This document shows, one piece after another, positions 2,513-60,700 of a stretch of 64,000 bases of DNA. A program made the position numbers and the translations under genes. Each line of letters starts with the position of its first letter. The first letter of the stretch is position 1. Source of the DNA: Candidatus Gottesmanbacteria bacterium (lineage in GTDB: Bacteria > Patescibacteriota > Microgenomatia > UBA10105 > UBA927); NCBI GenBank assembly GCA_030679255.1, contig JAUXTO010000018.1, positions 2,973-66,972 on the forward strand. Reading direction: 5' to 3'. Below the pieces are notes generated by a model. The model did not search any database. It worked only from the letters and a program-made list of their open reading frames with translations, and had not been told where the DNA came from.

Positions 2513-2553
2513 CATGAGACTAATGAGTCTCATGGGCCCCATGAGTCTCATGG
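2513..2553. repeat. Palindromic CATGAG-W-CTCATG motif cluster 2. It overlaps the stop of the four-helix-bundle gene.
   Basis: CATGAGACTAATGAGTCTCATGG at 2513-2535 and CCATGAGTCTCATGG at 2539-2553. Confidence 0.6.
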
Positions 2554-3095: not shown

Positions 3096-3098
3096 GGG

Positions 3099-3171
3099 TG
3101 GACCCGATCGGATTCGAACCGACCACCCCTGCAATGCGAATGCAGTGCTCTACCAAATGAGCTACGGGCCC
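3099..3171 (-). tRNA. tRNA-Ala (anticodon CGC).
   Basis: Reverse complement of 3099-3171 reads GGGCCCGTAGCTCATTTGGTAGAGCACTGCATTCGCATTGCAGGGGTGGTCGGTTCGAATCCGATCGGGTCCA. This is a canonical cloverleaf with G3:U70, D-arm GCTC/GAGC, anticodon loop TTCGCAT, and T-loop TTCGAAT. Confidence 0.85.
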
Positions 3172-3463: not shown

Positions 3464-3762
3464 ACTCACTCTAGTTTTCTCTCTTTTTTGCTCCTTGTCA
3501 AGGGGGCAAACTCGTCCTTGACACACCCTTTTCGCGCGCGTCATTATGTATATATAATAACTTTTTTCGCTAGCGGTTTTCGTTGGGTTTGAAACAGTTG
3601 GTGAAAAAAGATTGCATGCCCGGATCACTACCCAGGAATTTTTTTCATTTCAAGCATACAAATAAAAAATTAAAATCCCACGCATTTCTCCGTTTACCCA
3701 TCGTTGATGCATTTCTTTCTCTATTGATATCGTTATTGTCTCCCATGAGACACAGGAGACCC
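3464..3762. promoter_or_regulatory. Divergent intergenic control region between the small reverse-strand ORF and the giant gene. It contains an AT-rich tract and TTGACA-like boxes.
   Basis: Direct repeat tcCTTGTCAagg ... CCTTGACAcacc at 3491-3529. AT-rich stretch at 3540-3700. AGGAGA at 3754-3759 is a possible Shine-Dalgarno for ATG 3763 or 3772. Confidence 0.3.
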
Positions 3763-3780
3763 ATGAGTCGCATGAGTCCA
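3743..3780. repeat. Palindromic motif cluster 5, overlapping the giant-gene start codons.
   Basis: CATGAGACACAGGAGACCCATGAGTCGCATGAGTCC. In-frame ATGs at 3745, 3763 and 3772 all lie inside motif copies. Confidence 0.5.
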
Positions 3781-27700: not shown

Positions 27701-30700
27701 TGAAGACGGTCGGACCGTTGGGAACTATAGACCAGCAACAATTGATTTTAACGACAAATATTCAAAGTCAAGAAGGAACAAATGGAATCAGGACATTTGT
27801 ATATCAATATCCATCTGCGAATCATTGGATGATCCAAGAAAAAGATGGAGGTGCTTCGGGAGAAACGGATGTCGATCTCTCCTACGCACGTGTACATTTT
27901 GACGGCGCTCGCTATGTATTCACTAATCCCGATACCGGACGCGTATTATATCTGGATTCGGATGATTGGACGCATTCCTATGATCCTAAAGCGAGTCCGG
28001 ATGCCCGCATAGCTGATGATTATCTGAAAGCGAATTCGCTTGATGAACTGAAAGAAGCGATTCGCAAGCGGGGCCTTCTTTCGTATCAAGCATTTGGAGT
28101 TACTGTAGATGCCGATAAGATGATTGCCATAATCGATGACTATCTCGCAAGTACTCCGGTCGCCGATAGATCAGTGACTTCAGCAAAAGATTTTATATCC
28201 CTAAAGACCTGGAATCATGTTATTTTTGGCCAAGGGATTACCATCCGGCTGGTAGAACTTATGGGCGGGAACGTTGAACCATATTATCGGTATAAAAGAA
28301 AGCCCGCTGTAGTTGCCTCTCCCTTAAGCCCGGAACAGATTCGTGCGCGCCTCCTTTGGGAGAGAAGCGTCCTGGGAGAAAATAGCGTCAATAAACAAAT
28401 TCTTGTCGACCGCATTCAAGCCATTTATGCTCCGCTTCTTACTGTTGTTCCGGAGGAGTATAAAGGCGATGTTGAGAAGCAACTTCAGGAATTGATCGCT
28501 GCAATCTACCAGGATCAGGAGGCAGAGATTCTTGCCCGTTTTTCTACAGGCCTTGCATCCGAAATAGTGGATCTGTCCGATCTTCTTATAGATGGTATCC
28601 GGGAACGCATGGACGTGCTTCTGCCGCTTCTTTCTGCTTATCTTGAGACTTCGCGTGCTGATGTGTCTCAAGAGTCCGGAGGTGCTCAAAAAGCTCATAT
28701 CGTGGAACTTTTCCAAAATATCTTCCGGCTCGCAACCCAAAAAGAACTCGTCATTTCCCCGGCACTCCTGGACATCGAAACGCTTGCGCTCGTGGGACTT
28801 TCCCCGGAGAGTACGCCGGAGACCTTGAAAGCATTTCCGGCATTTCGCCGGTTTGTCGATGCATACCGGGACAGTGAGGGAGACGTGAGCCGTGCGGAAT
28901 TGAGGCTTCTTTTTCACTTCCTCCGTAGTTTTGCAGATCATCAAGGGGTCATGGCGACGGTAGTGTCTCAGATGCAGCGCATTGTAGGTGCGACCCCGGG
29001 GCTTCAGGGGCAGTTTTTTAAGGGCTTACGTCTTGGGCTCACCGGTGTATCGTCGGACATATTGGGAGCCGTGGTAAACGGGCAACCGATATCAACAATA
29101 GGAAGTGCCCATAGCTTCATCGCATTTTTGATCAATGACGCAGAACTCGTTCGTCAGTTGACCGACGAAGAAATGCAAAAAAAAGATTATAAAGGAGAGG
29201 ACGTACGTTTTCCATCAGGAGATATAGCTATTTCGCAAATGATGCAGTTAGAAGATAGTCGTCCCACTGGTGTCGATGGGGAGCATGTCATGAGTGTTGA
29301 GTATTTCTTATCCCATTTGGCCGAATTTGATGCCACGAGTCCAAATGGAATACCGGTTAATTCTGACGCGGAGACATCGCTTGTTCAGGACATCAACGTC
29401 CAGCGTGAGCCGAATGCTCATACGGGTGAGATAGCGGCAAATACTCGGGATGATACGAAGGGGACAGAAGGGAAGTTGGTTGTCGATCACTACGTACAGA
29501 CGCGTAATGGCCGTAAAGAATCTGTAGAAGAAGCCAGTGACAACGGTCACGGTGCGCTCGAAGAGCTTGCCCTGGTGCTTGCGAAATCTACCAAAGCGAA
29601 AGGTGGCCAGATAGATCTTACCGGATTTTTCGGGACAGGCAAGTACACCATATTTCAGGATGTCGATCGGGTGGAAATTATTTCTAATAATGGTACTCGG
29701 GCGTTCATGTTTACCTTTACCGTCAAAAAGGATGCGTCAGGAAAAGTAGTGTCTATTCGGCTTTCGGGTGTACGAAAGATTACCGATCCGTCGCTATCCA
29801 AAGGTGTCATCGTCAGAAGGATCAAATTTGCAGATACGACCATTCCGGAGCTTGATCATCTCATGGCGATCCAATCGTGGAAAATGTTTGCCGGCCTGTC
29901 TCAGTACAAAGATTCGACAGGCAGTTTTACCATTTACCTCGTGGGTCAGGATGGAGTTGCGCGTCCACTCGAGGTTAAGCATGAAATACTCGCAGAATCG
30001 GTCATGAAGGGCATCGATCCGATCACTCGTCAGGCCAAAGAGTATGGTGCCATTCGGATTATTGCAGTTGATGATGCGGATATGCCCAGGCAGATAGTCG
30101 AAGGCGCGGCATTTCGTGTGTCCGAAATTCCGGAGAGATTTCTGGAGCTTATTCCCCCCAATTACCGCCGGTATATAGAAGATTTACACCTGACGATACA
30201 GATTCCGTTGGCGCTTATTCGTAACAGAAGTGCTTTTGAGCATGAAACGGAGTTTCTCCCACTCATCCAGAAGCATGTCGCTGCGACATTCTTCAAAGCG
30301 CTTGCCTATAAAACACTGACGCAGAAGTCTCCGCAGTTTTCTTTTGAAGGATTACCGCACGATTGGGAGACGAGTGATAACTACGATCGGGAGTTTGAGA
30401 ATATCGATCCGGCGATCATCGAGGTTGCAAACCAGATAAATGCAGGAACAATTTCAGATATTTCTACGAAAGCATTGCTCTCGTTACTGCAAAACAGTGG
30501 TGAACGGGACTTGGCAAAAAAGTTAGTGAAGCTGATTATTCTCTTGAAGGTTTCCGTTGATAGGACCAATCCTTCGTTGACCATGAGCCTCTTTGAGCGC
30601 CGTATGGCAGTTATGGCCGAGACACGCGCAGATGCCGCACGCGCACAAGCGGAATCATTGCGTCGTCTTGGAGTGGCGGTAGATATGGGAAGCAATCATT

Positions 30701-33700
30701 TGAGTGCTATAGCAGAGCGCGATGCAGATGCGTTTGCGAGACGTGTGGGCGAGGCGAAATCTGTAGCACTTGGTCATAAAAACATGGAACATCCGTGGGA
30801 TTATGCGGTGGAGCCGCAAACGCCGGAAGAGATCCGTGTCATGGTATTGGCGTTAGAGGCAGGCCGGAGGTTCGGGATAGAAGATGTTGTTCTCATCGAA
30901 GGCATGAATGCCTTGGGGGCATTTAAGCTTGATCCAAAAACAGGGAAACGGACATTTTATTTGGATCGTTCTGCCGGATTTACACTTGGGAAGACGTACG
31001 GTGTGAAGGTAGACAAGGGGACTGATGGAATTGGTCATGAACTGACGCATTTTACAGAAGAACTTCGTGATAATGATGACCTATGGGTGCGTGGTTTTTT
31101 TGCAGATGTATCAGGATTTACCCATGACGCAGTGGGCACATTTGCCGATACGTTTAAGTATGTCATGGCGGTATGGCTTTTTGATGAGACAGGTAGCAGC
31201 AAGGGATTCTTTGACGTGATGCAGCCGGTTATCCGGGACATGCTTGCAGGTGTTGCCAACGGGCAAAATCCGAATAGTGCCGTGTTGACCGGCACCATCA
31301 AGGAAATGTTGACCGAGCAAAAGATTGTCTATACTCAAGAAGATCTTGATTGGATAAAGGCTCATCTTGAGTCTCTTGCGGTCAGAGCTATACGCGACCG
31401 CGAGAGTCAGGTGGTAAAGAAATCACTTGAGGAGCTTCAAACCGCGATTGCCGGAGGGGATGTGGCTCATGCTGTTAGGGCGTTGCAAACGTTGAGTGTC
31501 AGTTCATGGCGGGTGTACGCCGGGGATATACGGACCGTATTGGCAGGCATTGAAACAATTCAGGATCGGAATCGTCTTAGAGATATCGGCGTTGCCATAC
31601 ACCCACTGTTAGATGCGTGGAACGCATTTGATGAATTGCAATTAGCGGTTGCAAAAGCCAGGAGACATTTTTCCCAGCCTGCCACTTCTGACCCTCTCTC
31701 CCAGGATCTCCAGGCCATCATTGATGTGCAAAAAGTTATCAGTGCGGTGTTGGATGCAAATCAGCCGAAAAATGCATTGAATGACCAGCTGAATGCGTTT
31801 GACCAGAAGATTACCGGAATACATGATTCCATGCTGGCTCAGCGTACAAAAAATTCAGATTTGACTGATCCGGAATATCGCCGGTTGAGCGACGCGCTTG
31901 AAGCAGCACGAAAAGAGCGCAATACACTCACCGATCAATGGATGGCATTGCCGGATGTTGCACTAACACCAGAACAAACGACCCAAATAGCCCATGCGTT
32001 CGCGTCGCTTACTCATGAGCATTTCACAGATAGTGAGGTCGAGATTATTTTTAATTCAGACAACTATATATCGTCTCATGGGTTGAGAAGAATCCAAAAT
32101 ATTTTGGATGATGAATTATTCCGTCTAGCACAGTCACCCAAACCTGCTCCTGACTATCTTCCCTTCGCCGGGGCCATCCACGCGGCGTTGCCAGTGCAGT
32201 TAAGAACCGCTATTACCCAAAAATCCATCGAATCCCTCCTGCCCGGAATATTCCCGCTGGGCGCCGCAGCGGATCATATTGCCGCCGCACTTCGACAGTG
32301 GCAAGGAGGCCTCGTCCCACAACGCATCGGGTCGTTTCTCACTCTGCTTGGAGATGCGGGCAGCGACACCAGAACGATGATTGGTTTGGCTTTGCAGGCG
32401 GCTGTGGAAAATCAAACAGACCCTGCCGGAGCGGTGCAAACGGTATTGAATACCTATCGTTCAGCGCTTCTACTATCATGGGGAGAGCTACCGGAAACCG
32501 TAAAACAATTTAAAGAAGAAAAGAAAGATCTTCTGAATTCTTCCGGCGCCATGCCGTTTGCCGATGTCCTCTACCATCAGCTTCAGAGAGAAACAGGACG
32601 CGAAAGAGTGGCGCTTCAACATGTGTCTGTTGGTTCTGCAGTCTACAAATCGATTATCGATCAAGCTGTGGTGGTGGCAAGTACGACCTATCACACAACT
32701 CCGAGTAAATCTGTCAACACTCAAGCGGCCCTTGTTGACGCGGCTCGAGCAGTATTGGGAATCAGACGCCTATCTAATGGAGCTGTGGAAATCGCATTGG
32801 ATGTTCAAATCACCCGCCAAGACTACAACGCCGTCAATGAAGCCGCTTTCAAAAAAACCGGACTATCTCCACAATTAAAACCAGAGGTTCAGGCCCTCCA
32901 TGATGCACAGGTGGGCGGCAAGATCGCCAAAACGACGGGCGATCTGGTCGCAGATAAATTGAGAGCCAAGTACAACGAACTCGTAAGCCAGAAACAATCC
33001 TCATCGACGAAGCTCGATAACCCACTCTATATGTTCGATCTCCCGCGTCTTGCTGCGTACTGGATGACGAAGACCGAGGGGAAGACGGATAGCACTGCCA
33101 TGACAGATGATGTTCGTAAGTCAATGTTTTTTGCTGTAGGAAATGTCAGGAGTTCACTGCAAGGACTAATCAACAAGGGTTCCACAAATTCATCCGTAAA
33201 GAGTATAGAATCTGATTTCCGTAGAATAATGTTTGACCTATTTCTGGATCAGGATATCGTGATTGAGTTGTTTTTGCGTGAGACAAAGCAGAAATCATTT
33301 CAGGATGCTTTAAATGCAATGCTTGCGGATGCTACTGTGCAAAAAAAGTATTTAGACGTGTTGCAAACCATACTAGAGCGGATTGTACCTCCCGTCAATA
33401 CACTCATTGCTGATGCGCTAAACGTCACTCCTTCGAATGTCCAGCCCGCGGTCTCCACCCGTACAAAACTCGCCGCGGCAATTGAAGCATATGCCAACCA
33501 ACAATCCGGCCTCCCGTACTCGGGCTACAAAGCGTTGGATTCTGTAGAAGTCAACCTCTCCAATTTCCTCAAGTTTTTGGGGGAAAATAAACTTTTTGCT
33601 CCTCCTATTACGCCTCCTCCGGCCGGTGACGTCCTTCCGGAGACGATCGCCATCGTGCCGGATGATTTACTGACGCAACCGTATCAAATACTCTCATTCA

Positions 33701-36700
33701 CCCAGGGGAAGCAGAGCGAGGAGCGGGCGAAGAATCCGCCGCAACCGATTGACGCGGTCATGGCGATCCCTCCCATCGCGGCACCGGTAGTCCCGCCTCC
33801 CGCACCGGGAACAGCACCCGGCCAATCGCCGCTTGGAATTCCGGCCCAACTCCCCGAGTGCGTCACCGGAGATACAAAGCTCAAGAGGAGAAAGAAAGGA
33901 AGAAAGCAAGAGAGGAAGATAGCCGGAGCCGGATCAGATTTAGATGGTGTGGAGAAAAAACAAACCGCCTCTTTCGAAGCGGCTGTTGGTGAAGGAGATA
34001 CAATATCTCCGTCGTCCGATAAGCTTATATATGATACATCGCTTATGCCGGTTATGTCAAGTGGGCGGAAGGCGGGAGACTTGCACTCCATCCCGTCTTA
34101 CGACGGGACCATTCGCTTATCAGACGACGCCCCCTCGTCGGAGGTTCACCTTCCACCTGACGCCAGTATATCACAGGATGAATATGAGGACGTTGCCATC
34201 AAAGACATCCAGGCGGGCGACGAGATCCTGTCTCTGAACGAAGCCACCGGCCAGTTTGTCCCCCAGATTGTGGAAAAACTCATGGATAAGGGCATGCAAC
34301 AAACCTATCTTCTTGTGACATCATACGGAAAGCATATTCGCACGACAGCACAACACCCCTACCTTGTGCGCGATCCGCGGTTTGTAGAGCCGCCCATATT
34401 CCCTGAGCGGATTTTTGGCAGCTTTGAAGTGGATTTATCCGGTCATATTGAGGACACCTCTGTCGATACGTTTGTATCCGTTGCGAACCAATCATTTGCG
34501 CAGACCATACTGATCGAACAAACAGTCAAAAGACTACTCCAAAAGTTATTTAAGAAAAAAAATCACCTGAAGTATCTCGGACCACGCGTATTGGCAGCAG
34601 CGATTATGAGAATTATTCGACAAAGCAACATCGCCGTGACACATTTGACCGTTGATTTGAAATTCCCCGGATATCTGGAGGAAATTTCGCAGATACTACA
34701 TAGATTTGATCCGGACATGATGGTGTATTTCGGATCTATCGGCAAGCATTCACCAGCTCACTATGCCGCTCATGGCGCATTTATTGGGAAACAGCCGATT
34801 ATCGGCTTTTTACAGAAAGAGGATATTTTCGGTAACAAAAAAGACCGCGATTCCCGAAAGAATCTAGGCGCTTTGCAAAGTAAGGACGATCATATCCTAG
34901 GGAAATCGCCTGACCAAGTAAAGAGCGCACGCGGTCAATTTGTCTCCCCAGTATATACGAGAAGTCTCGATCTGTCAAACGGATCTTCGTGGAGAAAAGT
35001 AAAGGATATCAGAGTCAATCTGGAGGTAGCAACGATCGATGGTTGGGAGCGGATCGTGAGCATTGTGCCGATAGCCCGTGAGCATGTATACGATGTTCAA
35101 ATTTCCGGCACCCATAACTTCGTCGGCAACGGCATCGTCGCGCACAACACCTCAATAGAATCGATGCGGGTCCGGGAGTTCCATGCCGATACGGACGGGC
35201 AGGGGACTCAGCACTCAAAGGTTATCGAAGATATGCTCGTCCATATTTTGAATAATCCTGATACGGCAGGAGCGTTCCAGCTCATCCGGTCTGTCCGGTT
35301 GTTTGCAGCCCAGCACGGTATGACGGCGCTTGCAAGCATGGAGGAAACGCGTATCCGCGAGCTCCTCCCCACGATCTTTCGGTTTTTTGCACAGCACCAT
35401 GAAATGGGCAACTTCATGGGGATTGTGGATGGCAAACTCGCCGTATTCAAGCTTCAACATCACCCGGGCGCGGAAGCGCGGGCAAAAGCGATTTGGGATT
35501 TGATGACGGGCAACGATGCGTCTGCCTATCGCGCGAAAGCTCAGGAGTACGGAGCAGGTACTCTTAATGACGACGAGTGGAATCTCATCCGGGGATTAGT
35601 TGGGCAGATGATTATCGAGACGAACGTCGATCAAAACACAGACGGGTATGGGCTTGTCAGCCGCGTCTTTAATTTCAACATCAACGGGCCAGAGATGAAG
35701 GAGGCAGAGGGGTTTCAAAATACCCTTGTTAATTTGTATTCTCTATCCCAACGCCAAGTCCTCGTAACCAATCCGTTTACGAAGAAATTTGACCTCCCCC
35801 AACCATGGCTCCTGAAACGGATGTACGATATTGCCCTCCATTATACCAATTCATCAAATAAATCTTACGAAGAAAGTATCCGTGCGACTGTCGAAGAGGG
35901 ATGGACCCAGACAACTGAAGAAATTGATGCGCTCACCGGTCTTGCCAAGCTCTTTCATCGGGCCCGAAACGGTCTGGGAAACCTTGCTGCCCTCGCCGAT
36001 CAGGAAGTGGGTGCGTACCTACCGGATGGCGCCTATACCAACCCCCGGACCAATATTTCCTGGGCTCTCATGGCCGAGTACATCCGCCGCGACGTGCCCG
36101 TACCGGGCTACAACCCGGCCAAACCGGAAGAGTATTTGGGTTTCATCGACACGATGGCCAATATCGAATTTGGCAAACTCTTCCACAATCTCATGCAGGA
36201 TGCAGGAGGGGAGTTAGCGTGGACCAACCGGACCCCCGCCGCCCAGCTGGCCTTCGCCCGCGCCCGCCAGGCGGAGCTTAAATCCATGGTCGCCGAAGCG
36301 ATGAAACAACAAAGATTGACCGAATTACAACTCGCAGATCTGCCCGGATTTTTAGAGAAACTGCCCGGGAAGTATCCGGACGGCGCTAGACAGAAATTTG
36401 AACAGGCACTTGAAGAGGCGATGAATAGAGTGAATGACCTGCGGTCGGCAGAACAAAAAAATACTGCGAAGACTATCCAGACATTCACTGCTCCTTTTGA
36501 AAAATTGAGTGCTGATCCGGAAGTGTCGGCATATATCATTGGTCTGGATCCGGACTATCTCGCAAGTCTTGTTGCAGAAAAGGGGGCAGTGGATCGTAGG
36601 GACGCGGAAGTGATGGTCGCTGCATTGGAGCTGCTCGCCCAACGGGATCCACCAAAGAACGCACCGCAAGATCCGGTTGTAATGGCCAAAAGAGCGCTCA

Positions 36701-39700
36701 CTACGGTCAGGGGAGTGCAAAATGCGAGAAATCAAGCGATTTGGGCGTGGGACGCGGTTGCGACCCTTACCGAGCTTGTGAAAGAAACGCAACCACCACT
36801 CCAATTTTGGATCTACCTTGCCGATCTGCAGGACATTTTCGACGCTGCGGTAAAAACAGACCAAGAATTACTCCAAGAGACCAAAGTAGCAACCCGTGAA
36901 GTTTCAGAGAGTCTTGCCGATTTAGTTACGATCGATAACGCACGGGACATGACGAAAGCAGTCAGTCAGATCAGCGCAAATCGGGACGCATTGCTTGTGG
37001 CAAATGCAAAATCAACCGGGCTTATTCTTTTGGCTATCGCCCGCGGCGATGAAAAATTCACGATACTCGGGATGATTCATACGGCGCTTACCAAAGGGGT
37101 GAATAAGGCGGTTGTCACCCGATTAGGAATCACGCCGGAGACCCTTGCGGCATACGAAGATGCCGTGTATGTATCCGTATCAGAAACATTAGATGCCTAT
37201 GTTGTTGATAAAACAGATACCCGTCTCGCCCGCCTGAATCCGGCGGCAGGCAAGAAAGTATTTGATAAACCGGCATACGATAAATTAGTCACAAAAGCCC
37301 AAGCGGGAGCAAATATTCAGGAGGCATTAGCCGTAGATGTTTTTCCAAATAATCCTGATCTTCGACCGGCCCTTCTTCGGAGGCCAGAACTTCTTGATGG
37401 AATGGCAAAAGCCATTCTTGCTACAGCAGAGAAGCGAACGGATGACGCACTGAAAGAGCAGAAAAAAGCCGATGAAGATCGCCTCGCCCGCGCGGAAAAA
37501 ATAAAGTTAGCAAATGCCCAAAAGAAGGCGGAGAAAGAAGAAGCCAAACGTCGGAAAGAGCAATTAACGAGGGATCAGAAAGTGGAGCAAGAGCGCCTCG
37601 AGTTGGAACGGATAGCCCGTGAAAAAGCTGCTGAGGAGACGCGGCTTCGCGATGAAGCAGAAGCCCGTCGTAGGGCTGATGAAGATGAGCAGAGGCGGGC
37701 GCAAAAGCAAAGGGACGCAGACGCCCAGCGGCTTGCCCAGCAGGAGCAAACCCGACTTAAAGGATTTATCCAAGCGAGTAAGGCCCGCCGCGCGGTACCG
37801 TTTGCTCCACCGAGCCAGGATCAGATTCGTGACGTCGTCACTCGGTCCTTCGAATTAGGAGTCCTTCCGGCTTTAGCAGCGCGTGATGCGGTCATAGAAA
37901 CTGCACTTCAATTTGGTGAAAAGGAACTGGCTATGCGCATGGGCGTGAACTTTGAGACGTTCCGATTTTTGGCGGAAAAGTATGGACAGCGGGTCATGAG
38001 ACAGTATGCGGAGCAGGGACTGCCGGAGATCGGTCGGGCGATCAATTCCGGCAAAGCAGAAGCGATCAAAGCTGCGCTTGATCAAAACAAGATCACACCA
38101 TTCTATTACACCGATCAAGCAGGCTTACTTGCCCTGTTTAAGGCAAACGGTGAACCGGCACCATCCCCAGAGGTGGTTACCCGCATGATGCAGGGAGACC
38201 TGGGGACGGCGACGAAAAAAGGCATCTACCTTAAAGCTGATATGTTAAGTGGTGAAAACGTAACTGTTCTGTATCAGCGGATCATCGCCGAGGAAGTCAC
38301 GCACTTCATACGGTTGAACGATCCCACTGTCACGATCACCCAAAAGAACGTGGGACGCGAAGAGCTCATCGCCGCCGCCGTCTCCGTGGCGATGCTCAAA
38401 ACCCCGCCGCAGGAGGCCTACCAGCACGCCCAGACGACCACCATCCTGACCCATTTGGTATGGACGACAACGACCCCGGAGCCGGAGAAAGAAAAAGATG
38501 CCGGAGCGGCGAAAAAACCGGCATCCAACCTCCGTCGGCCACTTTCGAAAGAACAATTGGAAGTAAAATTGAAACAACTTGGTTTTGCAGATGGAACGAA
38601 CGATTTAATTAGTAAGCATCAGGCACTTGAGCTATTCCAGAAAAGCGATGTATTCAGAGGATGGACAGTTCGTGACGTCGATGATCACGGTGCCGCATCA
38701 CTCGTCATCTTTGCCAATACACCCGAAGGCGAACCGAGAGCAGTGAAAGTTGCCCTGAGTCCGAATGATGAGGAATCGGCCAAAATATCATTATTTGTAA
38801 ATTCCGGTACCCCTACAGTATATAGTTCTGGGCGTATTCAAAGAGATACGAGTGCCTCTTATTCATATATGGTCATGGAGGAGCTTCCGATTAGTGAGGA
38901 ATACAAACCCGGATCGTATATTTCATACGATAACCTGATCGTATCAGTAGAATATGACAAATTATCTCCAAAAGAAAAACTATCCTTTGCACTTGGTTTT
39001 GTTAAGAAGTATTGGGGTATCATGTTAGCTGCTTCGATCAACCCGCACGTATTCAATGCGGATTTTGCTAAAGGTGACAGTATGTTCTTTTATATTGACG
39101 AACAGGGGAAGGAACCAAGAGATGGGGCGTTCAAGCTTATTGATTATGGAGGAGTAAAAAGTGCAGACCAGAATTTTCTAGATCAGCGTCGAGGTTTGCA
39201 CAAACCCATGCTAGGCAATGCAGACGGACAGTTGAGAGAAATTTTTCCCATTCTGGCTCGTATTGATCCTATGTATTTTATAGGGAGCGACGCGCATATG
39301 TTCACAACAAAATCTCCAATCGGCGAGGAGGTCATACCGTTAGAGAGTCTTCCGCCGGAAATTCAAAAGTTCATCATGTTTATCGCCAGATTTAACGAGG
39401 TTACGCATCCTACATTTGGAAAAATGCTCGGCGATGGACTGTTGCATGGCGTGAATTTTGCTGAGGGTGAGAATAATTGGGACATAGGAGGATTTATGCG
39501 GGAAGTTATACTTCCTGCAGAAAAGTCATTGGCAACTATGGGTGATCTTAAAGGAGAAAAAAATGATGCAGCATATAAAGTAAAGCGAGATGCTCTATTT
39601 CAATCCTTTGCTGACGCTAAAAAGAATTTTTCACCACGTGGTACTTCCTATGAAAAAGCCCAAACAGATGCCGATATTGGTGCGATCGTGGATGTTGTAC

Positions 39701-42700
39701 TGAATGGAAAGTATCATCCTGACGAGCGTCTGCGTGAAGCGCTTGAGAAGCCGGGAGTACGTGAAACGGTTGCAGGATTCCTTCCGGTCCTCCGCATAGT
39801 CCGGCCCGGACTTCGGGATATTATCGATGCACCTAATCAGAGAGAAACAGTGGGCGATACCATCACGACATTTGTTGCCAAGCGTTTGAAGGTTACGGAT
39901 TCGGCACAAGTGGAAGCGATTCGTGTAGCAGTAACCGCTGCGATTCCTCCAGCAATCGCTACTGGATTTGATATCGGCACGCGACTGTCTGGTGATGACG
40001 GAAAGCGAATTGGTACTATTTTGTCTACTGTATGGAAAGATTCCGGGCAGAACGCGTCAAATTTCCTCACCCGTCTCCCCGTCTTTGTTCGGGCCTTGAC
40101 TATTCCTGACCTTTTGGTCGCCCGTAGCTTTATCTCTGACGTGCAAAAAGCCCTCGAAGAACTGGAAAAAGTGACTTCCGGGATGAACGCGACGGGCATT
40201 GACTCTCCAGACGCCTTCCTTACTGCTTCTTCGTACACCGGCACCGACACCCGCTATGCCGGAAAAAACAATCAACAAATCATCGAAGCAATCCTGACTG
40301 CTCATGAAATTTCGACCAACACTGACGGGGTCACCCCACCCGAATACACCTCCCTCATCCAGACTTACGGCACCGTCATCTTCAATATCTTGCAGTCCAG
40401 ACCAATACAGCCCGCCTCAACTCAGCAAAAAATTCAGGCAGTGCTTGATCTGCTATCCACTGCACCAAGCGCGTTGATTGTAAAGGAGGAAGCACCGAAG
40501 GATCAATTACCATCAGTCGTGGGAAATCAAGTCAAACTTCAGGAAAAGGTCATTGAAATAATTCAGGGGAAGAATGTGCGTTTGGCAGAGTTATTGCAAC
40601 AACCAGGATTGGCATTTAGTTTTATGATGTTTAATAATATTCGACTTGAATTACGTCTTGACGCTTCATGGATAGATACACCAGAGAAATATCTCGATGT
40701 TATTTTACGCTACTTGGTGGAGAAAGTGAGTAAAGACATTTACACGCATAAGTTTGAACATGAAAAAAATGAAATAGAAGGATTTAGCAGTCAATATAAT
40801 CAGGAGTATATAAAATATTTGAAATCAGTTCTGCTTGAATATGGATTCATCGAAAAACACATAGATGCATATATAGAAGGATATAAGGCTGATGCAAATG
40901 AGTTATCGAAGATTTACCAAAGTGGTAATACTGGGGGGTTAGAAAAAATATATAGGGTTTTAAATAGTTATTTTAGAGATGATTTTAGAGTTGATGATGC
41001 AAAGAATAAAGTCTATATTGACTTGATTGGCGGGTATCGATCAAATCTGTTAAAAACGATCAACAATGCACTCGCATCGGGTCGAGCTGGTTTACCTACC
41101 GCAGAGAGCATTCAGGCCCAATCGCAGAATCTTGAGAAACAGCGTCGTGAGAATACTGCAGGTGAAACGTTGAAACAACGCGTTTCAGACACCGTTACAC
41201 CCGGAGTATTTTTGGCATATGGATTGGCCGTTCCCGCGTGGCTCGATACTCCTCTTTCCGCGCTTACTCCTCAGGAAATCGGAAATGTTACGAAAGCATT
41301 GGAAGCGCTCAAGGTTCTCGTTGCAGGTGATAATGGGGTGAAGGCCGCCCAAACACTTTCACCGGTCACCATCGCCGACATTACCTCATCCCCCAAACAA
41401 GTAGTAGGTAGCCGCACGTTCCGCATGACCTCACAGGGAGTATTTGAAGAGGTAGCCAACACAGGATTTATGTTTTTTCCCAAGGGAACGGTGATTGCGA
41501 CCGGCACAGAAAACGTAGTGATGATCATCGGAGATCGTGTTGTCGATATCATCGTTGTGCAACGTGACTATCGCGTTTCAACAGATACATATATCGCATT
41601 TCCCAACTATAGAGATGATGAAGGGGCAAGAAATATTTATACATATGCGCTCCGGGGTGGCCAGCATATCGTCACCGGACCGCTTGCCGTCGGCACACTT
41701 ATTTCGCTTACCCAGCCAGTAAAGAAGGCAGCGATCGTTACGGCGAACGATATTGATTTGTATGATGTCGTTACCGTGGCGACGGGAAACACGATACTCA
41801 CACGCGGAGTAAATCCAACCCGCGTCTATATCCATAACGGGTCTTTTCTGCGGGAAATTACGACTCTTGAGGATATTGTATTGCCCGATAGCACGACGCT
41901 TCGCGTCGATCCGCGCCATTTTTCAGTAGGAGCCGTTATCTACAAGGAACGAGTTACCATTGGCGCAGTCGAAGTATTACGTACCACGGATGGACACATT
42001 GCTTTGTCGGTTGGAGCGGACGCGGGAGCTTGGTATTTCCAGTTTGGATCAGCAGGCCAAATGCCCTTGACCGTGATTGTGCCAAGTACATTGCAGAAAG
42101 TTAGTCTCATTGCCGAGCCATGGGATAGGACAAAGAATCAGGATTTTGATATTAATCATACTGCGTCTTCCTTGGCCGACGCGGTAACACCGAGCTATGA
42201 ATATGCGGGTGAACTTTTGGACGGATCGACGCTTCAGTACCGGGTAAAAGGAGATGGTACGAGAGAATGGATATCGGTCGATGCGGCGAACAAGCGTACG
42301 CCGGTTCCGATCGGTACCCTTCTGCAGAATTCATCTGGTGCGCCGCTACTCGTAGAATCCACCGGCACCGTTGTTGTCACGCAATTAGGCGATTTTCCGG
42401 TGTATGTCTCCAAGGATGGAAGACGCGTATGGAGGGAATCTGGTGCGCTCCTCACGCCTGCTTCTTCACCGCTGTTACTCGCTAATGGTCAAATGATATG
42501 GTTTGATGGGCAGGGGAGTATCCGTGTATTTGATGAGTATCTGAAGGTGTCGTTTGCAGGTGCGGGGGATATGCCTCTCCTGTTGGGCAAGGAAGCCACG
42601 ACCGGCACGCTCTATTGGGTAGGAGAGGCAGACGCGAGAGAGCAGCCCACCGGATCTGAATTTTCGGTTAATGATGTTCGGTTTCGGGTATCGCCCGGTC

Positions 42701-45700
42701 AAACGGTAGCGAGCCAACTTGTTGTGGTAGGGCTTACCGACACCAATGGGTTGTGGAATACCCTTCGATCGGATATGGATTTCCTCATCGGGTTTTATCA
42801 AAGCGTGGATTGGGCGGCGGTGGCAGAGGGGCAAGATGGATTGAGGAATAAAGACCAATTAATCGTTGATGTGAGGGAAAGAGCAAAAAAAGCCGTGAGA
42901 AGATTGCTCGTAGGAGTCGCAACGGACGTGACCGTCTTCGGGCCGGCATTTGATGCGTATATAGAAGAGACGATTATCCCGGCAGTGCGCACAAATATCC
43001 GGGCGATTGGTCAGCCGACTGTAGTGAAGGGAGCGCTTGAGATTGAACAAAATTTTGCCGTTTGGCGGGCGACCCATGAGATGGTCGATGCGTTTGTGCG
43101 TAGTCCGGCTCTGGCAAAAAAGAAGGGAGTGGTTGCCGTAGCCGGCCGTATCGCTGGGCTGCGTGCCGGGACTCAAGGCTCTGACACGGTTCCGATCGTG
43201 CGTGATGCACTTTGGACTGCCCTTCAAAATCAGGAATTGACGCTGCCGGTTGCCTACGGAAAGAAAAAGATCATCACGCTGCGATCTGCGATAGAAAGTA
43301 TGTACCTAAATGGGACGAGAGCGGGCTTTGCAGCCGAAAAAGCTCGGCTCATCGATGCGGCATGGATGGCGATTGATAACGCAGGCGCTTGGGAAGAATT
43401 TTTGGAGAGGGTGGGAGGGGTAAGTGTTACCATGCGTTCATGGTTTGGAGGATTAACGTATAGCGCGCAGGAAACCGCACTCTATGAACGTCTTGAAGTT
43501 GCCCTTCGGGATATTGGCACAGACAAAGACGCGAAAGCCGCAGCAGAAGCGGAGGCGAAACTTCGTAGTGATACGATCCAAGCACAATCGTTTGCCCAAG
43601 TTGCTGCGGATGGAATCATCGGTGAAGCATCGGGTTTGTATGGGATTGATATGTTTCGGGATGAAGTGACACGCTTGATCCGATCTCAAATCAGCACTAT
43701 GGCAGACGGCATCCGCAAGCAAAACAAAGAGCGTACAGAGGCCGTTGAGCGCATTGGAATGCGTCTTGGTAAAGCATTGTTCGATCAAGTGGCTAGCGTG
43801 AACATTGTCGGGATGCTTGAATTGGATCTAACGGCTACTCCAGCCAGAATCGAATCTAACATGTTACAGGGAAATTATACGGTGGAAGCGCAAGATTCGA
43901 TGTCTATCTGGAGAAACTATCTACCTGATCCATTGATGACGCTCTTTGATGATGCTATGAAGGATACTACATTGACTGCACTTACTCCGATTGAGCAGCA
44001 ATCCTATATAGATGACGTTCGCCGTGTAGCGGCACAAGAAGCACTGCGATTGTGGACTGCGCGGGAGGATGATGGTGGAATTTTATCCGTGATGACTCCA
44101 GAGGAGCGGCAGGCAGTGGTTGGGCTTGGGGTTAAAGCAATTGGATCAGAAAGAAGAATGGATTGGCTCATGGATGGAAGCGGGATATCATTACTTCCAG
44201 AGACGCGCAAGGCTCTCATACAGAAAGTATTTACTGATACGGATAAATTTATTGAAAACCAGCGGTTTACTGCGGCGCTTGCAGATGTTCAGCGCTTTTT
44301 TCCATCTCTTTCTTTAATATATGAAACGAGAAATAGATTTAATGCAAAATTATTTGAAGGTAATCTGGCATGGAGTTTAGCGGAGGCTGATACATTACAC
44401 GCGTTATTTGATGACGGCAAAGCATGGGAACAGACGAAAGCCGCATTACAGAAAACAGGAAGCTTGCGGGATCATATTTATCATAATTTTATCCTTCTTC
44501 ATTCAATTCCCCGGTATGCAGATCGGCTTCCGGATTTGTCGGTTCGGTTTTTTCGAGACGGATTGCCAAGCAGGATGCTTGAAGAGATATTTACACCGCA
44601 CAGTCTTTTTTGGAAATCTGAGTCCGTACAGTCCGCTATGAACTCGATCTTTTCAAAAAAACAAACCGATCAGGAATATATAGCGCAAATCTATATATTT
44701 CTCACGCGTATGTTTGGGAAGTTGATCGATACGAGTAATCTTAGTGGCACATATCACATATCCAATGATCAGTATCTCAGCTTTGTCCAAGTCGTGTCAG
44801 AGATTGTGTATGAAACGCATAAGGATTGGGTTGTCGTAGCGGATAATCCACCTAAGGTAGTCTCAAAAGAAGGGAAGACACTATCAATACTTGATATGTT
44901 TGCTAAACAAGTTGGTGTCCGTCAAGAAATAGCGGGTGTATACCAAAGAGTAAGGAGCGAATTTTTGAGCAGTGAATCATCAATGAGGTCCGTTGCCGCA
45001 GCCGCACTCAACATAACGACGGATGCTTCAAACAATAGTGCTAATGTTATTACCGCCAACCGAAGGCTCATGAAAGTAATTCATCCTGATACCACTGGTG
45101 TAACAGATGAATATATCAGCACAATTATGTCGTATATCGAACAGGTTAAAAAATACCTTGAAATCATCAACGATACTGTTATGTCGAAAGACAATATTGA
45201 TGCAGCATCATTTGTTTTTGCTCTCATTACCGATAAATTCATCTATAAGGAATCTATTTATGGGTTTAGTACTGGTGAGCAAATGAAACCCAGAAAAACT
45301 ACATATACTTTTCGTGAAAAGGAGTATTTGCTATATTCTCGTAAAATGCTGGGAAATGAGTTACAAGAATTTATACAATTTGTAATTAAGGACACAGCAT
45401 TAGATGAGCGTGCTATGGTTGTCAACCAAGCTGTTGCAACGGGTTCATATCAAGATGTACGGGATCAGATGGAGCAAGTATTTTTGAAATATGTCAGAAG
45501 TGCCGATGTGAACATGAGGGAGTGGGATAGCGATTGGTGGGAGTTGCAGATGTGGAATACCTATCGCCAAATCAGGCTCGCCCAAGGTTTAGAGCCGAGT
45601 GTGAAAAACGATGGAAGTGATTCTCCTTCGCGTCCGAGTGGTCCTTTATTCCTTCCTGCGCCCAGTATTCAAGATCTTGTGACACACATCGTTGTGCGGA

Positions 45701-48700
45701 CGCTTACTGATCAAGGTATTCCAATCGACGACGATATGAAAAAAGGGATTGTTAGGGTCGTGGAGAGCATGGTGATTTCAACAGTTCCAGCAGCTTCCGC
45801 CTACGATGTCCTAGCCCCTCTTGCGACCCAGGCCAAAGAGAAATGGGAAGATTTCCTCACCCGTCTCCCCGTCTTCATCCGGGCCATCACGCTTCCCAAT
45901 ATTGGTGATGTCCCAACCTTTATCTCCGATGTCATGAAGGCGTTAGCCGCCCTCGAGAAGGGGAGTTGGGGCAGCGCGTCGGATTATCCCACGGTAGACG
46001 TGTTCTTCGCCGCCCCCTACACGGGAGAAACTCCAGAGTACGAAGGTAAAACCAACCAAGACGCCATCGAAGCCATTCTCGTGCAACACAACATCACCCC
46101 AACGGACCGCGGAGTCATAGAAGCAGAATATAAATCTCTTCTGAATGAATACGCCAAGGCACTCTTTGCCATCTTACAAAATAGTTCAGCCCCTCCAGCT
46201 CTACCAGATGAGTACTCTATTATTGAGAATCCAACAGAAGCGGATGTTAATGGTTTTTTAGATCGTATAATCTCAAAAAACGTTGATAAGTATGACATCG
46301 ATTTAGTGAAAAAAACAAGAGATGGCGGTAATATTTTTATAACCGGAAGATCAGTGAAAGTGGCAGTAAACAAATCCGGTGTTATTATTGGGCTGATTAA
46401 TACAACTTTATCAGTTGAAAAAGAGAATACCGGAATTATCAAGTATATATTGGTAGACCCTGCATATCAAAGTAAAGGTATAGGATCGAGGCTTGTGAAA
46501 GATTATCAGACTTCTACTTCATTGGATGTCATAGAGTTATATCCGTGGAATCAATTGCTGCCCAGAGGGATATCAGAATCTGATAAAACAGTTGCGTTGG
46601 ATGCGTTATACAAATTTTATACCCAAAATGGTTTTCAAAAAGATGATAAATCTGCTAACTGGATTTGGCGAAGATCACCTCTCCAGCCTCCCGATGGAGG
46701 GTCTCTCGATGGCGGATCACCCCCGACTGGCGGCACTCCTCCTTCTGCTCCACCCATTGCCGGCGCGCCACAAGCTCCTGCCGCATCGGGAAAACCAGGA
46801 ACGGGAAAGGCGGCGGCAGGAGCGCCGATTGCAAAAGTCGATCCCCAGTGCGTCACCGGAGATACGATCCTCAAGCGGAGAAGGAAGAAAGCAAGAAAGC
46901 AGGATAGGAAGATAGAAGGGGCTGGCCCGGATCCTTTGGGATTTGGAGCTTGGGATTTGGAGCTTTGGAGCGGCAGCGACTGGGAGGATATCCGCATTGA
47001 CGAGATTGAAGAAGGCGATGAGATCCTCTCACTCAACGAATTTACCGGTTTATTTGAGCCGGCTCGAGTAGAGAAGCTTCTGAACAAAGGCATCCAGCAG
47101 GTCCAACGTCTTGTTACTGCTTCCGGCAAAATCATCGAGACCACAGCAGAGCATCCGTATCTGCTTCGTACGGGTAAACCCATGGAGACGGCGGATCTGC
47201 GTCGCTCTTTTGATGTGGACCAGTCCTATCGTATGGAAGATCTTCGTCATGACACGGTCATTGCTGCGGCAAACGATGATGTGTCATTTTCTATTACCGT
47301 CACGAAGGAGGTTAAGAAACAGTTGGCATCTCTGTGGCGGTCTCGCAATATGCCCAAGAGATTTGGTCCTGAGTTATTTGCCCATGCAGTGGCGTATTTG
47401 TTCCAATATTTCCGTGTAAATCCGGGTAAAGTCGTGCTTGATGAGGAGTATACAGGATATGACAAGTGGATCATAAAATATTTGTTAACCATCATGCCGG
47501 AAACGACGATTCGCGTGTGGTCGATCGGGAGAAATTCACCGGCACATCGGACAGCATATAGTTTAGCGACGGGAGCAAGAAACTACGAAGAGAAAAAACA
47601 GAAAAAGACCGGGGCCAATTCGATCCTCAGAGGGTTCTTGGCTTCAGAACTGTTACACCCAGAGTTTACAGGGATTCGCAGTCCACGCGGTCTTTTTACT
47701 AAAGAAAATGATACCACGGTTTGGCAGAAAGTCAAGTATCTCAAGCCCGGTATGGTGATCCGGACAGTAGACGGTTGGGAGAAGATTGCCGCGCTCTATC
47801 CCACTGCCCGCCGCCATGTCTATGATATCCAAATTGCCGGCACCCATAACTTCGTCGGCAACGGCATCGTGGCACATAATACTTCGACTGCGCTCAGTAC
47901 GGGCACGAGGGTTGGAGGACTCCCCGGCGACACAGTGAAAATAGTCACCGTGGGCTTCACAGGAGGATCACTGGAAGATTATTTGGCAGAAAATAGTAAA
48001 GACATATGGCGGTTATTGATACGCGCAAAATTAAGAATAGATAAGTTGGGAGTGGATCATCCGGAAATCCAGTGGGACAGGGCTGTCCAGCCCATGAAGG
48101 AAGTTACGGACTTGTTTAACGCTCAGTCGGGGAGCCCTGAGCAGGATGCTTTTCATGCACAGATCTTGGCGGGAGGGGACAAAGCGGACAAAGAGAGCGT
48201 CAAAAAAGCGCTTCATGAAGTGATCGCAAGTCGCAATGTGTTTGATGCTGCCATCGGAGAAAAATCCATCGTCTTAACGAGCGCCAATCTCGAGGATCTT
48301 CTGGAAGAGTCATTTGTGGAGATTGTGTCTGAACATGCTATTGCCCAGGAAAAAGTGCGTTTGCAGGGCATGCTTGATGGGGTGAAGGCGCGTGATACGT
48401 CCGGTGAAGGATCGCTTGTGCGTGAACTTATCAATAATGCCGGGGATAGTCTTTCTCTGGTTGACAATACCTGGACATCGTATCTGGTCGACGCCGCGCG
48501 TTTAGCGGGGGATTTGGACCGATATCTTTCCCAGGATTTCCGTCCGGCTGCTCAGACGGCGATAGACGCACGCGCGCAGTTTGAACGATACGAGGGTCAG
48601 TTACGGGAGAAAAGATCACAGATTGGAGAATTGCGTCAGTTTGGTGCATTTCAGAATCACGCCGAACAGCTGCTCCACGTCGCCGTTCTTGATTTACCCG

Positions 48701-57700: not shown

Positions 57701-60700
57701 CTGGTAAATCTGAAAGGGATTATTTTGATGCCCCTGCAGTGAAGCCATATATAAATACAGTGGTAAATAATATGGCAATTGGGGATATAACCCAAGTCGA
57801 CCCACTCACATTTCGTTTGCTTGCAGCGTTGACCACCGATATGGTTTTCCTGCGACAACAAACCGCCAGCGTTCCATTTACCACACTTGGATTACCTGCA
57901 AAACCTCCCGTCGCATTTGTTCCGATCGGACAGCCACCTGCAGATTCTCAGAAAGCGCCAGCGTTGACGCCTAATCAGCCGGTGTCTACGCAGGTATCTC
58001 TCGGGTCATTTACACCTACTGCTGATCAATTATTGAGTACAATTCCTATTCCTCCGGAGTTGCCTACGCTTGTGGCACAAGCAAGTTCATTATTGGATCA
58101 AGCACAAGAAGACCTCAACCAGGGGAAGAGAGATGTGTTTGAACAACATGTAGCGCAAGCCCATGGACAAATCGCAGACCTCATGAAGCACTGGCCGACT
58201 GACGACGACGTGCAACGAGTCATAGCCCAACACAACTTATTGACGGCTCAGATACGTGGTAAAGGTATTCAGATGATCGTATCCACAAATGAATCAAAAT
58301 CAAATCAGATTATCACTGCATTTCGGTGGGACGGGAAAAAAGTCGAGATTTATCTTTCCAACGAACAAGGAGACGAACAATTTCCTGCTTTAGGAATCCA
58401 AGAAACCTCCACTGCCGATACCGCTCAGGAATATGATCAACGAATTACTGAATATCTGTCAAATCGGGGAAAACAGGCATTTTACGCGAGAAAAATATCG
58501 AGGGTATTAGATGGCATTGAGGATATCGTAAAACCACAAAATGCTCATACCCCTAAGGACGTAGGATCCGCTGGCCTCGGCGGGGGAGGAGAGGGAGAAA
58601 ATAAATTACTCAATTTGCTCAATTCCGGAAACGTCAGGATGAAATTCCCTTTTTCGTATCATTTCAGTACTGGTTTTTCACTGGCGAGCAGGATGTATGG
58701 TATCAATCCTACTGATGGAAGTGACGTCAATAAGGCAAAACTTAAACAACTCTTCGGATCTACGAGAAATATCATGGATCCAGTATCACTTAATATGGTG
58801 AATGATGTGGTTGCGGTTCGGGTTTCGGTTATTGATGGTTCATATGTGATGATTGAACAAAATTATGCGGAGTTATTTGCGATGGCCGTTTATTATGGAC
58901 TGACGCCTGAAGAAATTTATGTCTATGATCGCGGGACAGGGAATTACATGAGCTTGAATGATCTTTTATCAGTTGTTCCGCAAAGAACAGAAACAAAAAG
59001 CCGCTATGATGTTTTATTCACCGACATGGAGAAAGATGAAAAGACCAGCCGTGGGTACGCTGATTATTCAGATATTTTTCCTGACCAAAACCCACAAGGT
59101 CTATCCCTTGAGACAGTTCTTATGGATCTTCTAGAAAAGAAAGCACTGTCTGGTGACCACACGCTTACGATTCTCGACCAGGGGGCCGGGGTAGGAAATT
59201 TTGGCCGTGTCCTCGCTGCTTTGTTTGAAAACCCAAATAGGAGTGATAAGGAAATGAAGCAATATTTCGGTAATAAGAAATTTCTTGCCGTATGGAGACC
59301 TGAGCGCATGGAAGAAGCTCGGCGTATTGCCCGGCGAGCGAGGGACCTTGGCATCGCATTGCGGTACGTGGGTATTACGGATGCCAATCGTACGCAAAAT
59401 CTTTTTGATAGAAACTGGACGATTGGGGCGCCTGGAAAGAGTGTCTTTGCGGAAAATATTGCGTATACCTATACGCCGAGACAACGGCTTAAACAGGTGC
59501 TCGATACTTTGGGTATTACTTCTATAGATTTTGCATTTAGCGTTGCATTTGAATCGTATTTAGATGAAACAACGCACACAGCCCTTACTCAGGATATTAT
59601 TGGAGCATTGGGGCAGGATGGCATCTACGTTGGAGAGACGGCAAAGCTGCAATTGATGCTTCAAAATTTTGAGCGGAAAGGAATTGTTACGTTGCTTGAT
59701 GCAGCCCAACAGGTTTCTTACGGGGTAACATATAGCAGTTTAAGGAGTATATTTTCCGTCAGACGCACTAAACAAAGTGATCGTAAACAATTCACGACAG
59801 CCGGAGAACGGGTGGTACAAGCGGAACTTCGGTCAAATCCTCAAATTAATGCAGATCAGCTTGCTCAGCACGCAATTGATGCGCTGGCAGAAGCTAAAGC
59901 TCATTCGGATTTATTGCAATCCGTTTCTCCCGCCGGCGGGGGAGGAGAGAGACCGATGGATACGTCCAATTTAGCCAGTAGAAAAATAGTCGAAGCCGAG
60001 GCGGTCAGACTTATTGAAACATCCAATAAAAATGCAGCAAGTACGCTCATGGCCCAGTATGAGCGGTTGGTTGCGGGACTCGTAAACGTACTGGAACAAA
60101 ATCCTAATCTTTCGTTAGATTCATACCTTGATATGGTGGCGACCAACGATAACGTACGGGAGCTTCTGGGGATCAGCCCGACTGGAGATCGGAGTCCTCC
60201 AACTCCTTTTCAATCGTCCCTTCGTACTTCTCTCGCCTCCGACCTCCCGTCCCTCCATACCCAGGCCGCACAGCCAAATGCCACCAAAAAACCCGCTTTC
60301 GCGGGTTTTGGCGATCTCGCCAGGTTGGTAAAAAAGCTGGACCTAAGAAGTAATGTACTTATATCATTTTATGAACGTTTTGTCACTCCCAGCTCCCAAC
60401 CTGGCAGGCCCACTCCATTGGTGAGTATACCACAGCAAATTCACGCTGTTTTATCAGATTTTGTGGCTAAATTTCTGCCTAAAAAGAATGTTTTGCAACC
60501 TGTCCCCGGCGGCACCGGCGGCGGGGGAGACGGAGGAGCGGCAGTGATGCCCGGGGAGTCCGGATTGACGCCTCTTGAATTGAAAGCCAAACAACTGACC
60601 GAACCGGCAGCAGCGGCCATTGGAGAAGCGCTCGTGAAGCCTCTTGAGAAAAAAGTTAATGATCTTTGCAATGATCGTACGGGATTTATACCGGGTGGAC

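Follow-up and report, generated by a model that had tools for sequence, protein, structure and literature searches.

A candidate orphan domain family recurring between variable segments of a giant Patescibacteria protein

Introduction

What kind of element is it that occurs twice, almost 6 kb apart, within a single giant gene of Candidatus Gottesmanbacteria bacterium, and what might it do there? The locus in question is a stretch of 64,000 nt (contig JAUXTO010000018.1, positions 2,973 to 66,972, forward strand), the whole of which is referred to below as the window. Most of it is taken up by one open reading frame (ORF): frame +1 is free of stop codons from 3574 to 63999, which corresponds to at least 20,142 codons or at least 60.4 kb, and the longest open stretch in the other frames does not exceed 360 codons. 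An earlier note on this DNA had described a pair of duplicated “type B” adapter modules in the ORF and had taken them as evidence of modular build-up by intragenic duplication. When the pair is considered together with its relatives in other genomes, the two segments are homologous, are present in exactly two copies in the window, split long ago, evolve under purifying selection, are flanked by variable sequence and recur in an otherwise unrelated giant protein, while matching no entry in the libraries of known families. The reading that we favour, at a probability of roughly 0.6, is that the module is a non-catalytic structural connector or adaptor which would mark cassette boundaries in the giant protein.

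In the numbering used here, aa 1 lies at nucleotide 3574, so that nt = 3574 + 3(aa-1). Labels L002 to L005 denote contigs of relatives, and P0001 to P0004 denote proteins retrieved by an exhaustive profile search. The two copies, and the core of each that aligns directly with the other, are located as follows.

39910..40416, + strand: module copy 1 (aa 12113-12281), recognised by homology to copy 2 and to the L002 module and by matches to profile hidden Markov models (HMMs)
45661..46206, + strand: module copy 2 (aa 14030-14211), recognised by homology to copy 1, L002 and P0002
40018-40416, + strand: core of copy 1 (aa 12149-12281)
45808-46200, + strand: core of copy 2 (aa 14079-14209)

One module in two copies

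The two cores share 57 identities over 133 aligned positions (43%, E 2e-28 in BLASTP), and a comparison of the giant protein with itself in overlapping chunks, similar in purpose to the self dot-plot that the earlier note had proposed, recovers the same pair (aa 12149-12281 against 14079-14209) with an E value of 3.8e-25. The significance of this alignment upholds the homology of the two segments as first described, and the spacing agrees as well, since the copies are offset by 5,790 nt, or 1,930 codons, in the same frame of one ORF, where about 5.8 kb had been stated. The peptides originally quoted from both copies and the pattern common to them (IEAIL..H.I, EY.SL and F.ILQ) are likewise all present. 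No further significant copy was found by hmmsearch in the window part of the giant protein with profiles built from two, five or seven sequences. Two copies lying 1,930 aa apart, 43% identical and separated by non-repetitive sequence do not correspond to the tandem structural repeats of adhesins. A second set of internal repeats exists in the C-terminal part of the giant protein and is described below; kinship of the module with that set was ruled out (hhalign probability 0.15%).

The unit is longer than the directly alignable core. Copy 1 (aa 12113-12280) matches the module of L002 with 46.8% identity over 171 aa (E 5.6e-33), copy 2 (aa 14030-14211) matches it with 47.5% over 200 aa (E 1.7e-53), and copy 2 also aligns with aa 1966-2153 of P0002 (29% over 193 aa, E 2.9e-8). 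Because these relatives bridge beyond the 133 aa that align directly, the homologous unit extends N-terminally to about 170-200 aa.

Relatives of the module

An exhaustive HMMER search with the two-copy profile against 1.84 billion representative proteins gave four matches, only two of which, P0001 and P0002, are real; P0003 and P0004 are repeat proteins that matched spuriously and were rejected. P0001, a fragment of 232 aa, is encoded on L005, a frameshift-ridden contig with 1.26x coverage that derives from a third ortholog of the locus. The second ortholog is L002, a giant frame in a metagenome-assembled genome deposited in GenBank (JBBTWJ010000010.1, “Patescibacteria group bacterium H41-bin149_1”), which places the host of the window gene, a groundwater bacterium, among the Patescibacteria (CPR). 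It was the only relative returned by the scan of the genome collection, and a metagenome scan with a three-sequence alignment returned only L003, which is 100% identical to it.

A distant relative is P0002, a protein of 5,470 aa encoded on ENA contig k141_1904647 (L004), which has nothing in common with the window protein at the BLAST level outside the module and carries four copies of it (aa 741-942, 1350-1557, 1965-2168 and 2675-2872). These are separated by mutually dissimilar and unannotated segments of 400-500 aa, one of which follows each copy; by eye, a HExxH motif can be seen in one segment and kinase-like motifs in two, to which Pfam lends no support. The L004 frame continues for at least 1,831 codons after the single in-frame TAA (16724-16726) that ends P0002, and this codon could mark two abutting genes, a sequencing error or a site of readthrough. 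By these searches the family is known from four lineages, and it is confined to giant proteins with many domains in a few lineages of the Patescibacteria type.

A conserved module with changing neighbours

Patches of 45-60% identity follow one another in the same order in the window protein and in L002. The features that surround the two copies in the window are listed here in order.

37783..38496, + strand: segment X (aa 11404-11641), matching L002 aa 3007-3252 (54%) and also L005
38497..39909, + strand: segment between X and copy 1 (aa 11642-12112, 471 aa), unannotated and without counterpart in L002
40417..45660, + strand: the 1,748 aa that follow copy 1 (aa 12282-14029), unannotated and without counterpart in L002
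46360..46641, + strand: GNAT acetyltransferase domain (aa 14263-14356) after copy 2, with the acetyl-CoA motif QSKGIGS
46849..47880, + strand: intein 2 (aa 14426, Cys, to 14769, Asn, with Thr at +1), Pfam Intein_splicing at 86 bits
aa 14806-15062: segment Y, matching L002 aa 4001-4255

The order in the window is thus X, 471 aa, copy 1, 1,748 aa, copy 2, GNAT, a linker rich in Pro and Gly that holds intein 2, and Y. The L002 protein has X, the module without any gap, about 500 aa of a different sequence (“cargoL”) and Y, and in L005 the order is X, about 1,050 aa of unique sequence, the module and cargoL. The insert between X and the orthologous module therefore measures 0 aa in L002, about 1,050 aa in L005 and about 2,390 aa in the window. 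The block of the window protein that bears copy 1 (aa 11642-14029) is absent from L002 and is represented by a different insert in L005, and the chunked self-comparison revealed no duplication of anything besides the module within it. Since only the module is duplicated, and since the block with copy 1 is absent or replaced in the orthologs, cassette insertion or exchange fits these arrangements better than duplication in place. Judged by these alignments, copy 2 is the ortholog of the single module of L002 and L005, and in the three orthologous loci the module is a conserved island with variable sequence on either side.

The neighbours themselves are mostly featureless at the level of known families. 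Copy 2 does lead into a GNAT domain, as previously claimed, with three Pfam models above their cut-offs (Acetyltransf_7, 32.9 bits against 27; Acetyltransf_1, 30.8 against 20.7; Acetyltransf_10, 24.3 against 23.6). The 1,748 aa after copy 1 match neither Pfam nor PDB sequences, which is in keeping with that part of the earlier description in which copy 1 leads into a region of unknown function. No Pfam match was obtained for any of eight segments neighbouring module copies, and none at E<=1 for aa 11642-12112, where motifs resembling those of kinases (AVKVAL, YMVMEEL, FKLIDYGG) are visible by eye only. The word “adapter” is apt insofar as the module has different neighbours (GNAT, unannotated sequence and the four segments of P0002); an assignment to the downstream domain is not supported, as both flanks vary.

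Age and selection

The divergence of the two copies is considerable, with 42% aa and 54% nt identity, proportions of nonsynonymous and synonymous differences (pN and pS) of 0.38 and 0.73, and corrected divergences (dN and dS) of 0.52 and about 2.7, the latter being saturated. Dating of the duplication from synonymous divergence, as the earlier note had suggested, was carried out and yields no date, because synonymous sites are saturated. The relative order of events is more accessible. In the core, copy 2 and L002 share 60% of their residues (dN 0.31) and copy 1 and L002 share 50% (dN 0.47); in the C-terminal half, L002 and L005 are 73% identical, copy 2 is 56-58% identical to both, and copy 1 is 45-53% identical to all others. 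This order of pairwise identities gives the topology (copy 1, (copy 2, (L002, L005))), with copy 1 as the outgroup. As copy 2 is closer to L002 and L005 than to copy 1, either the copies had already split when the lineages parted or recombination brought in copy 1 from another gene. The two segments are thus best regarded, from their sequences, as ancient paralogous copies. Of the build-up by intragenic duplication that had been proposed, the modular character of the protein and the paralogy of the modules stand, and a recent or simple duplication in place does not, given the pS of 0.73 and the greater proximity of copy 2 to its orthologs. Moreover, dN/dS is well below 1 in all pairs of modules, and both copies have been kept by selection on the protein, as the low dN against a saturated dS shows.

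Character of the module

An alignment of seven copies retains only D, L, A and F as invariant columns and contains no conserved pattern of His, Cys or Ser, although several motifs remain recognisable ([FL]LxRLP[VI][FY][IV]R, KA[LI]..LE, D.F and G[VI][ST]..EY..L). The copies are acidic or near-neutral, with net charges from -12 to +1, and free of Cys, and in none of them does any stretch reach the hydrophobicity that a membrane helix requires; the idea of a membrane-inserting translocation domain was rejected on this ground. Two AlphaFold runs, one on copy 2 with GNAT as a single sequence and the other on the module with a two-row alignment, agree on about eight helices at low confidence. When the seven copies were compared with Pfam-A, NCBIfam and PHROGs, no family was matched: the best E values, 0.002-0.08, all fell below the cut-offs, and no family was common to more than two of the seven among these subthreshold matches. 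Nor did the module profile match PDB sequences (best E 0.08). The module is therefore best treated as a previously undescribed orphan family, with domains of about 170-200 aa and of a general kind that is already known, and the models and the alignment suggest a helical domain that is probably non-catalytic.

A structural connector as the preferred reading

How, then, might such a domain contribute to the giant protein? In the reading that we prefer, the module would fold as a helical unit, flanked by short and often Pro-rich linkers, between segments that are unrelated to one another. It would separate neighbouring domains and present them along the membrane-anchored giant polypeptide, which exceeds 20,000 aa, and over evolution it would come to mark the boundaries where the protein gains, loses or swaps cassettes. 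The recurrence of the unit between dissimilar segments in two unrelated giant proteins and the selection on its protein sequence are what this proposal would lead one to expect.

Several points weigh against it. We infer the connector function from sequence arrangement, and the structure models are poor (pLDDT, the predicted local distance difference test score, of 36.7 for the single-sequence run and 56.3 for the two-row alignment); a Foldseek search of PDB with the weak model gave no meaningful match (best E 2.9). Because both flanks vary between orthologs, the module can be assigned neither to the upstream nor to the downstream domain, and the label “enzymatic cargo” is documented for GNAT only, most neighbouring segments being unannotated. 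The family rests on four lineages, of which L005 is the frameshift-ridden one with low coverage. Finally, a stretch of identical DNA within the two copies is unaccounted for by a purely protein-level role.

The identical DNA core and competing explanations

Exactly two occurrences of the 23-mer TTCCTCACCCGTCTCCCCGTCTT lie in the window, on the + strand at 40063-40085 and 45853-45875, where no such repeat is expected by chance. The core of 23 nt reported by the earlier note is thus real, and its length is the one particular of that observation in need of correction, as the identical run is slightly longer.

40061..40085, + strand: first identical stretch, 25 nt, encoding (N/D)FLTRLPVF, a motif better conserved than any other in the module
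45851..45875, + strand: second identical stretch, 25 nt, with the same letters as 40061-40085

Among the 57 identical aligned residues, 23 use the same codon, seven of them in succession (FLTRLPV), and the run is lengthened by flanking bases. In order to score such runs, codons for the residues present were redrawn according to their frequencies in the gene, and the longest in-register identical run was recorded: 25 nt was reached in 0 of 20,000 simulations, the longest run being 22 nt. A first rough estimate (p about 0.05), by which the run had seemed compatible with chance, was overturned by this simulation. The heptamer CCCGTCT, which is repeated within the core, is not enriched in the window. 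In the seven core codons L002 departs from the shared sequence by two synonymous changes, even though its module as a whole is nearer to copy 2. The identity therefore exceeds what amino-acid conservation would lead one to expect and is confined to this genome's own pair of copies. One reading is a short tract of gene conversion; another is that preferred codons ending in C were retained where the residues are under the strongest constraint.

The broadest alternative combines several roles. The module may be the signature boundary of a cassette system, in which giant Patescibacteria surface proteins would be arrays of exchangeable effector domains and the connector would serve both as a handle by which the neighbouring domain is presented or delivered to a host cell and as the site where cassettes are gained, lost and swapped, with the 25-nt core as its trace. 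We regard this extension as tentative and, at present, as rather doubtful.

A narrower explanation, which we consider unlikely, places the action of the module mainly at the DNA level, where it would serve as a homology arm for the swapping or insertion of cassettes between alleles or paralogs of giant genes, and the core would be a footprint of gene conversion. The result of the simulation speaks for it, as does the occurrence of 25 identical nucleotides in an alignment that is otherwise 54% identical and saturated at synonymous sites; so do the synonymous differences that separate L002 from the two copies, the dissimilarity of the module flanks in all three orthologous loci, and the ends of the two inteins of this gene, whose DNA identity of 83-86% implies that exchange or recent copying does occur within it. 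However, a single 25-nt identity within 400 nt at 54% would be a very poor substrate for homologous recombination, and the low dN/dS of all pairs indicates selection on the protein. FLxRLPVF is, besides, kept at the amino-acid level in the L004 copies with other codons, and the preference for C-ending codons mentioned above could also account for the identity.

Alternatively, the module could belong functionally to the enzyme that follows it, as an N-terminal subdomain with a regulatory or substrate-targeting role. In the loading modules of polyketide synthases (PKS) that contain an adaptor region (AR) and a GNAT domain, such as that of CurA, GNAT is directly preceded by about 200 aa of helical structure and followed by an acyl carrier protein, within synthase modules that contain ketosynthase and acyltransferase domains. 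The arrangement at copy 2 is similar on the N-terminal side: a region of comparable size, predicted to be helical, ends about ten residues before the GNAT fold, to which a short Pro-rich linker joins it. The segment of 400-500 aa after each of the four P0002 copies would also agree with such a role. Nevertheless, the downstream partners are mutually unrelated, the upstream partners vary as well, and there is no association specific to GNAT, as copy 1, the orthologous module of L002 and L005 and the four copies of P0002 all precede non-GNAT sequence. Furthermore, Pfam scans of the giant protein, which covered 20,000 of its 20,142 residues and left out the last 142 aa, detected no PKS domains, whether of the carrier (acyl carrier protein, PP-binding), ketosynthase (ketoacyl-synthase) or acyltransferase type. 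An AR-GNAT module in the sense of CurA is thus not what these data describe, and the subdomain explanation seems to us improbable.

The least probable of the explanations gives the module a part in delivery, processing or docking. A secretion or translocation machine, a protease or a component of the host surface would recognise it and release or deliver an adjacent effector-like domain, much as with the pre-toxin regions of polymorphic toxins or the sites between the effectors of MARTX toxins. The module recurs at cassette boundaries, the membrane-anchored protein bears domains that need cytoplasmic cofactors (GNAT, Pkinase and a weak Fic), which would make more sense if parts of it reached the inside of another cell, and a role in host interaction is the general proposal for the very large surface proteins of Patescibacteria (PMC13059738, PMC10066038), but no protease domain, RTX repeats or known pre-toxin Pfam family is found at the module, the module has no hydrophobic hairpin typical of translocation domains, and it flanks only two of the many domains of the window protein.

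Comparison with other giant proteins

Giant proteins of Omnitrophota, the “archaeovorins”, combine many transmembrane regions with SecA/DEAD-like helicase domains, HEAT/TPR repeats and carbohydrate-active domains (bioRxiv 10.1101/2023.11.21.568195; PMC10066038). Among Patescibacteria, very large surface proteins (PMC13059738) and ORFs of similar character but smaller size (PMC10066038) have been described, and the window ORF appears to be larger than the latter. It shares with the giant ORFs of ultrasmall episymbiotic or predatory bacteria all the features by which that class is described, namely a length beyond 20 kb (here one frame that exceeds 60 kb), anchoring in the membrane at the N-terminus, sparse domain annotation, poor conservation among relatives and membership in a group of episymbionts with reduced genomes. 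In contrast to the Omnitrophota type, the window protein has only three hydrophobic helices and domains of the signalling or modification type (GNAT, FHA, kinase, a weak Fic and LCP), and its best candidate for an Omnitrophota-type helicase, ResIII, scores 21.7 bits, below the cut-off of 22.5 bits.

Two toxin systems offer partial parallels. Like the pre-toxin regions of polymorphic toxins (PT-HINT, PT-TG, VENN), the module is a conserved region beside variable and exchangeable domains that are replaced between close relatives; unlike them, it is internal, is present several times per protein and matches no PT family. Pre-toxin regions directly precede a C-terminal toxin domain at the protein end, and more than 5,900 aa of the ORF follow copy 2. 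MARTX toxins are likewise very large polypeptides with arrays of unrelated enzymatic domains and linkers, but the boundaries there are short cleavage sites instead of a folded domain of 200 aa, and neither RTX glycine-rich repeats nor Peptidase_C80 (CPD) was found in the scanned part of the giant protein.

The remainder of the window

The giant ORF and its surroundings contain several further features.

3745..63999, + strand, open from 3574 and running past the window end: giant ORF, with no stop in frame +1

Its probable start is the ATG at 3745, which is followed by MRHRRPMSRMSPSGG and a hydrophobic helix. This signal-anchor helix (ORF aa 69-97) and a hydrophobic hairpin (aa 5314-5350) are accompanied by only about eight Pfam families in 20,142 aa: two Hint domains of the intein type, GNAT, LytR_cpsA_psr, FHA and Pkinase, with ResIII, GDSL lipase and Fic matching below threshold. 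No Pfam match was obtained in aa 5001-10000, a region that our analysis counts as about half of the protein. The second set of internal repeats, presumably the “type A” of the earlier note, comprises aa 16194-16454, 17617-17952 and 19063-19186, as well as the pair 17986-18098 and 18787-18899 (nt about 52,150-61,300); it lies near the FHA, weak Fic and kinase domains and includes the conserved motif NFS(L/F).P.(A/V)YA.

Both inteins (intein 1 at 33859-35148 and intein 2 as listed above, both on the + strand) have Cys1, a TxxH block and VAHN followed by Thr at +1, and each carries an insert between the two Hint halves. They are placed in Pro-rich inter-domain linkers and not at conserved catalytic sites, and both are absent from L002, intein 1 having been inserted together with a Pro-rich linker of 32 aa and five C-terminal residues. 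Their proteins are about 37% identical; the similar ends (33853-33896 against 46843-46886, and 35074-35153 against 47806-47885) suggest intragenic copying or conversion.

Upstream of the giant gene lie a LysM/M23 peptidase gene and two tRNA-Ala genes (2432-2504, + strand; 3097-3171, - strand). The peptidase gene is also present on a Logan contig from run SRR13727518, which ends within the giant gene. Nine copies of a partly palindromic 21-nt repeat (CATGAGACACATGAGTCTCAT-like) between 2369 and 3773 surround the tRNA-Ala genes and extend into the first codons of the giant gene. An ORF of 204 aa (2520-3134, - strand) overlaps the minus-strand tRNA gene, and we take it, by eye, to resemble the four-helix-bundle proteins that are often found in intervening sequences of rRNA and tRNA.

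Implications

What is described here is an ordinary kind of modular protein evolution, and the giant gene and its inteins are more unusual objects than the module. The finding nonetheless documents an undescribed orphan domain family, and it indicates that the giant gene evolves by turnover of cassettes and not by recent internal duplication. In genomes of such a size a gene of more than 60 kb would take up a very large fraction, an argument for its importance, and Patescibacteria are thought to depend on hosts on which they act by means that are largely unknown. If the giant protein does consist of exchangeable domains with a dedicated connector, the module would provide a signature by which such proteins could be found and segmented, as well as boundaries for the expression of single domains. 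Should the cassette system also prove true, it would mean that episymbiotic, ultrasmall bacteria possess a polymorphic multi-effector architecture.

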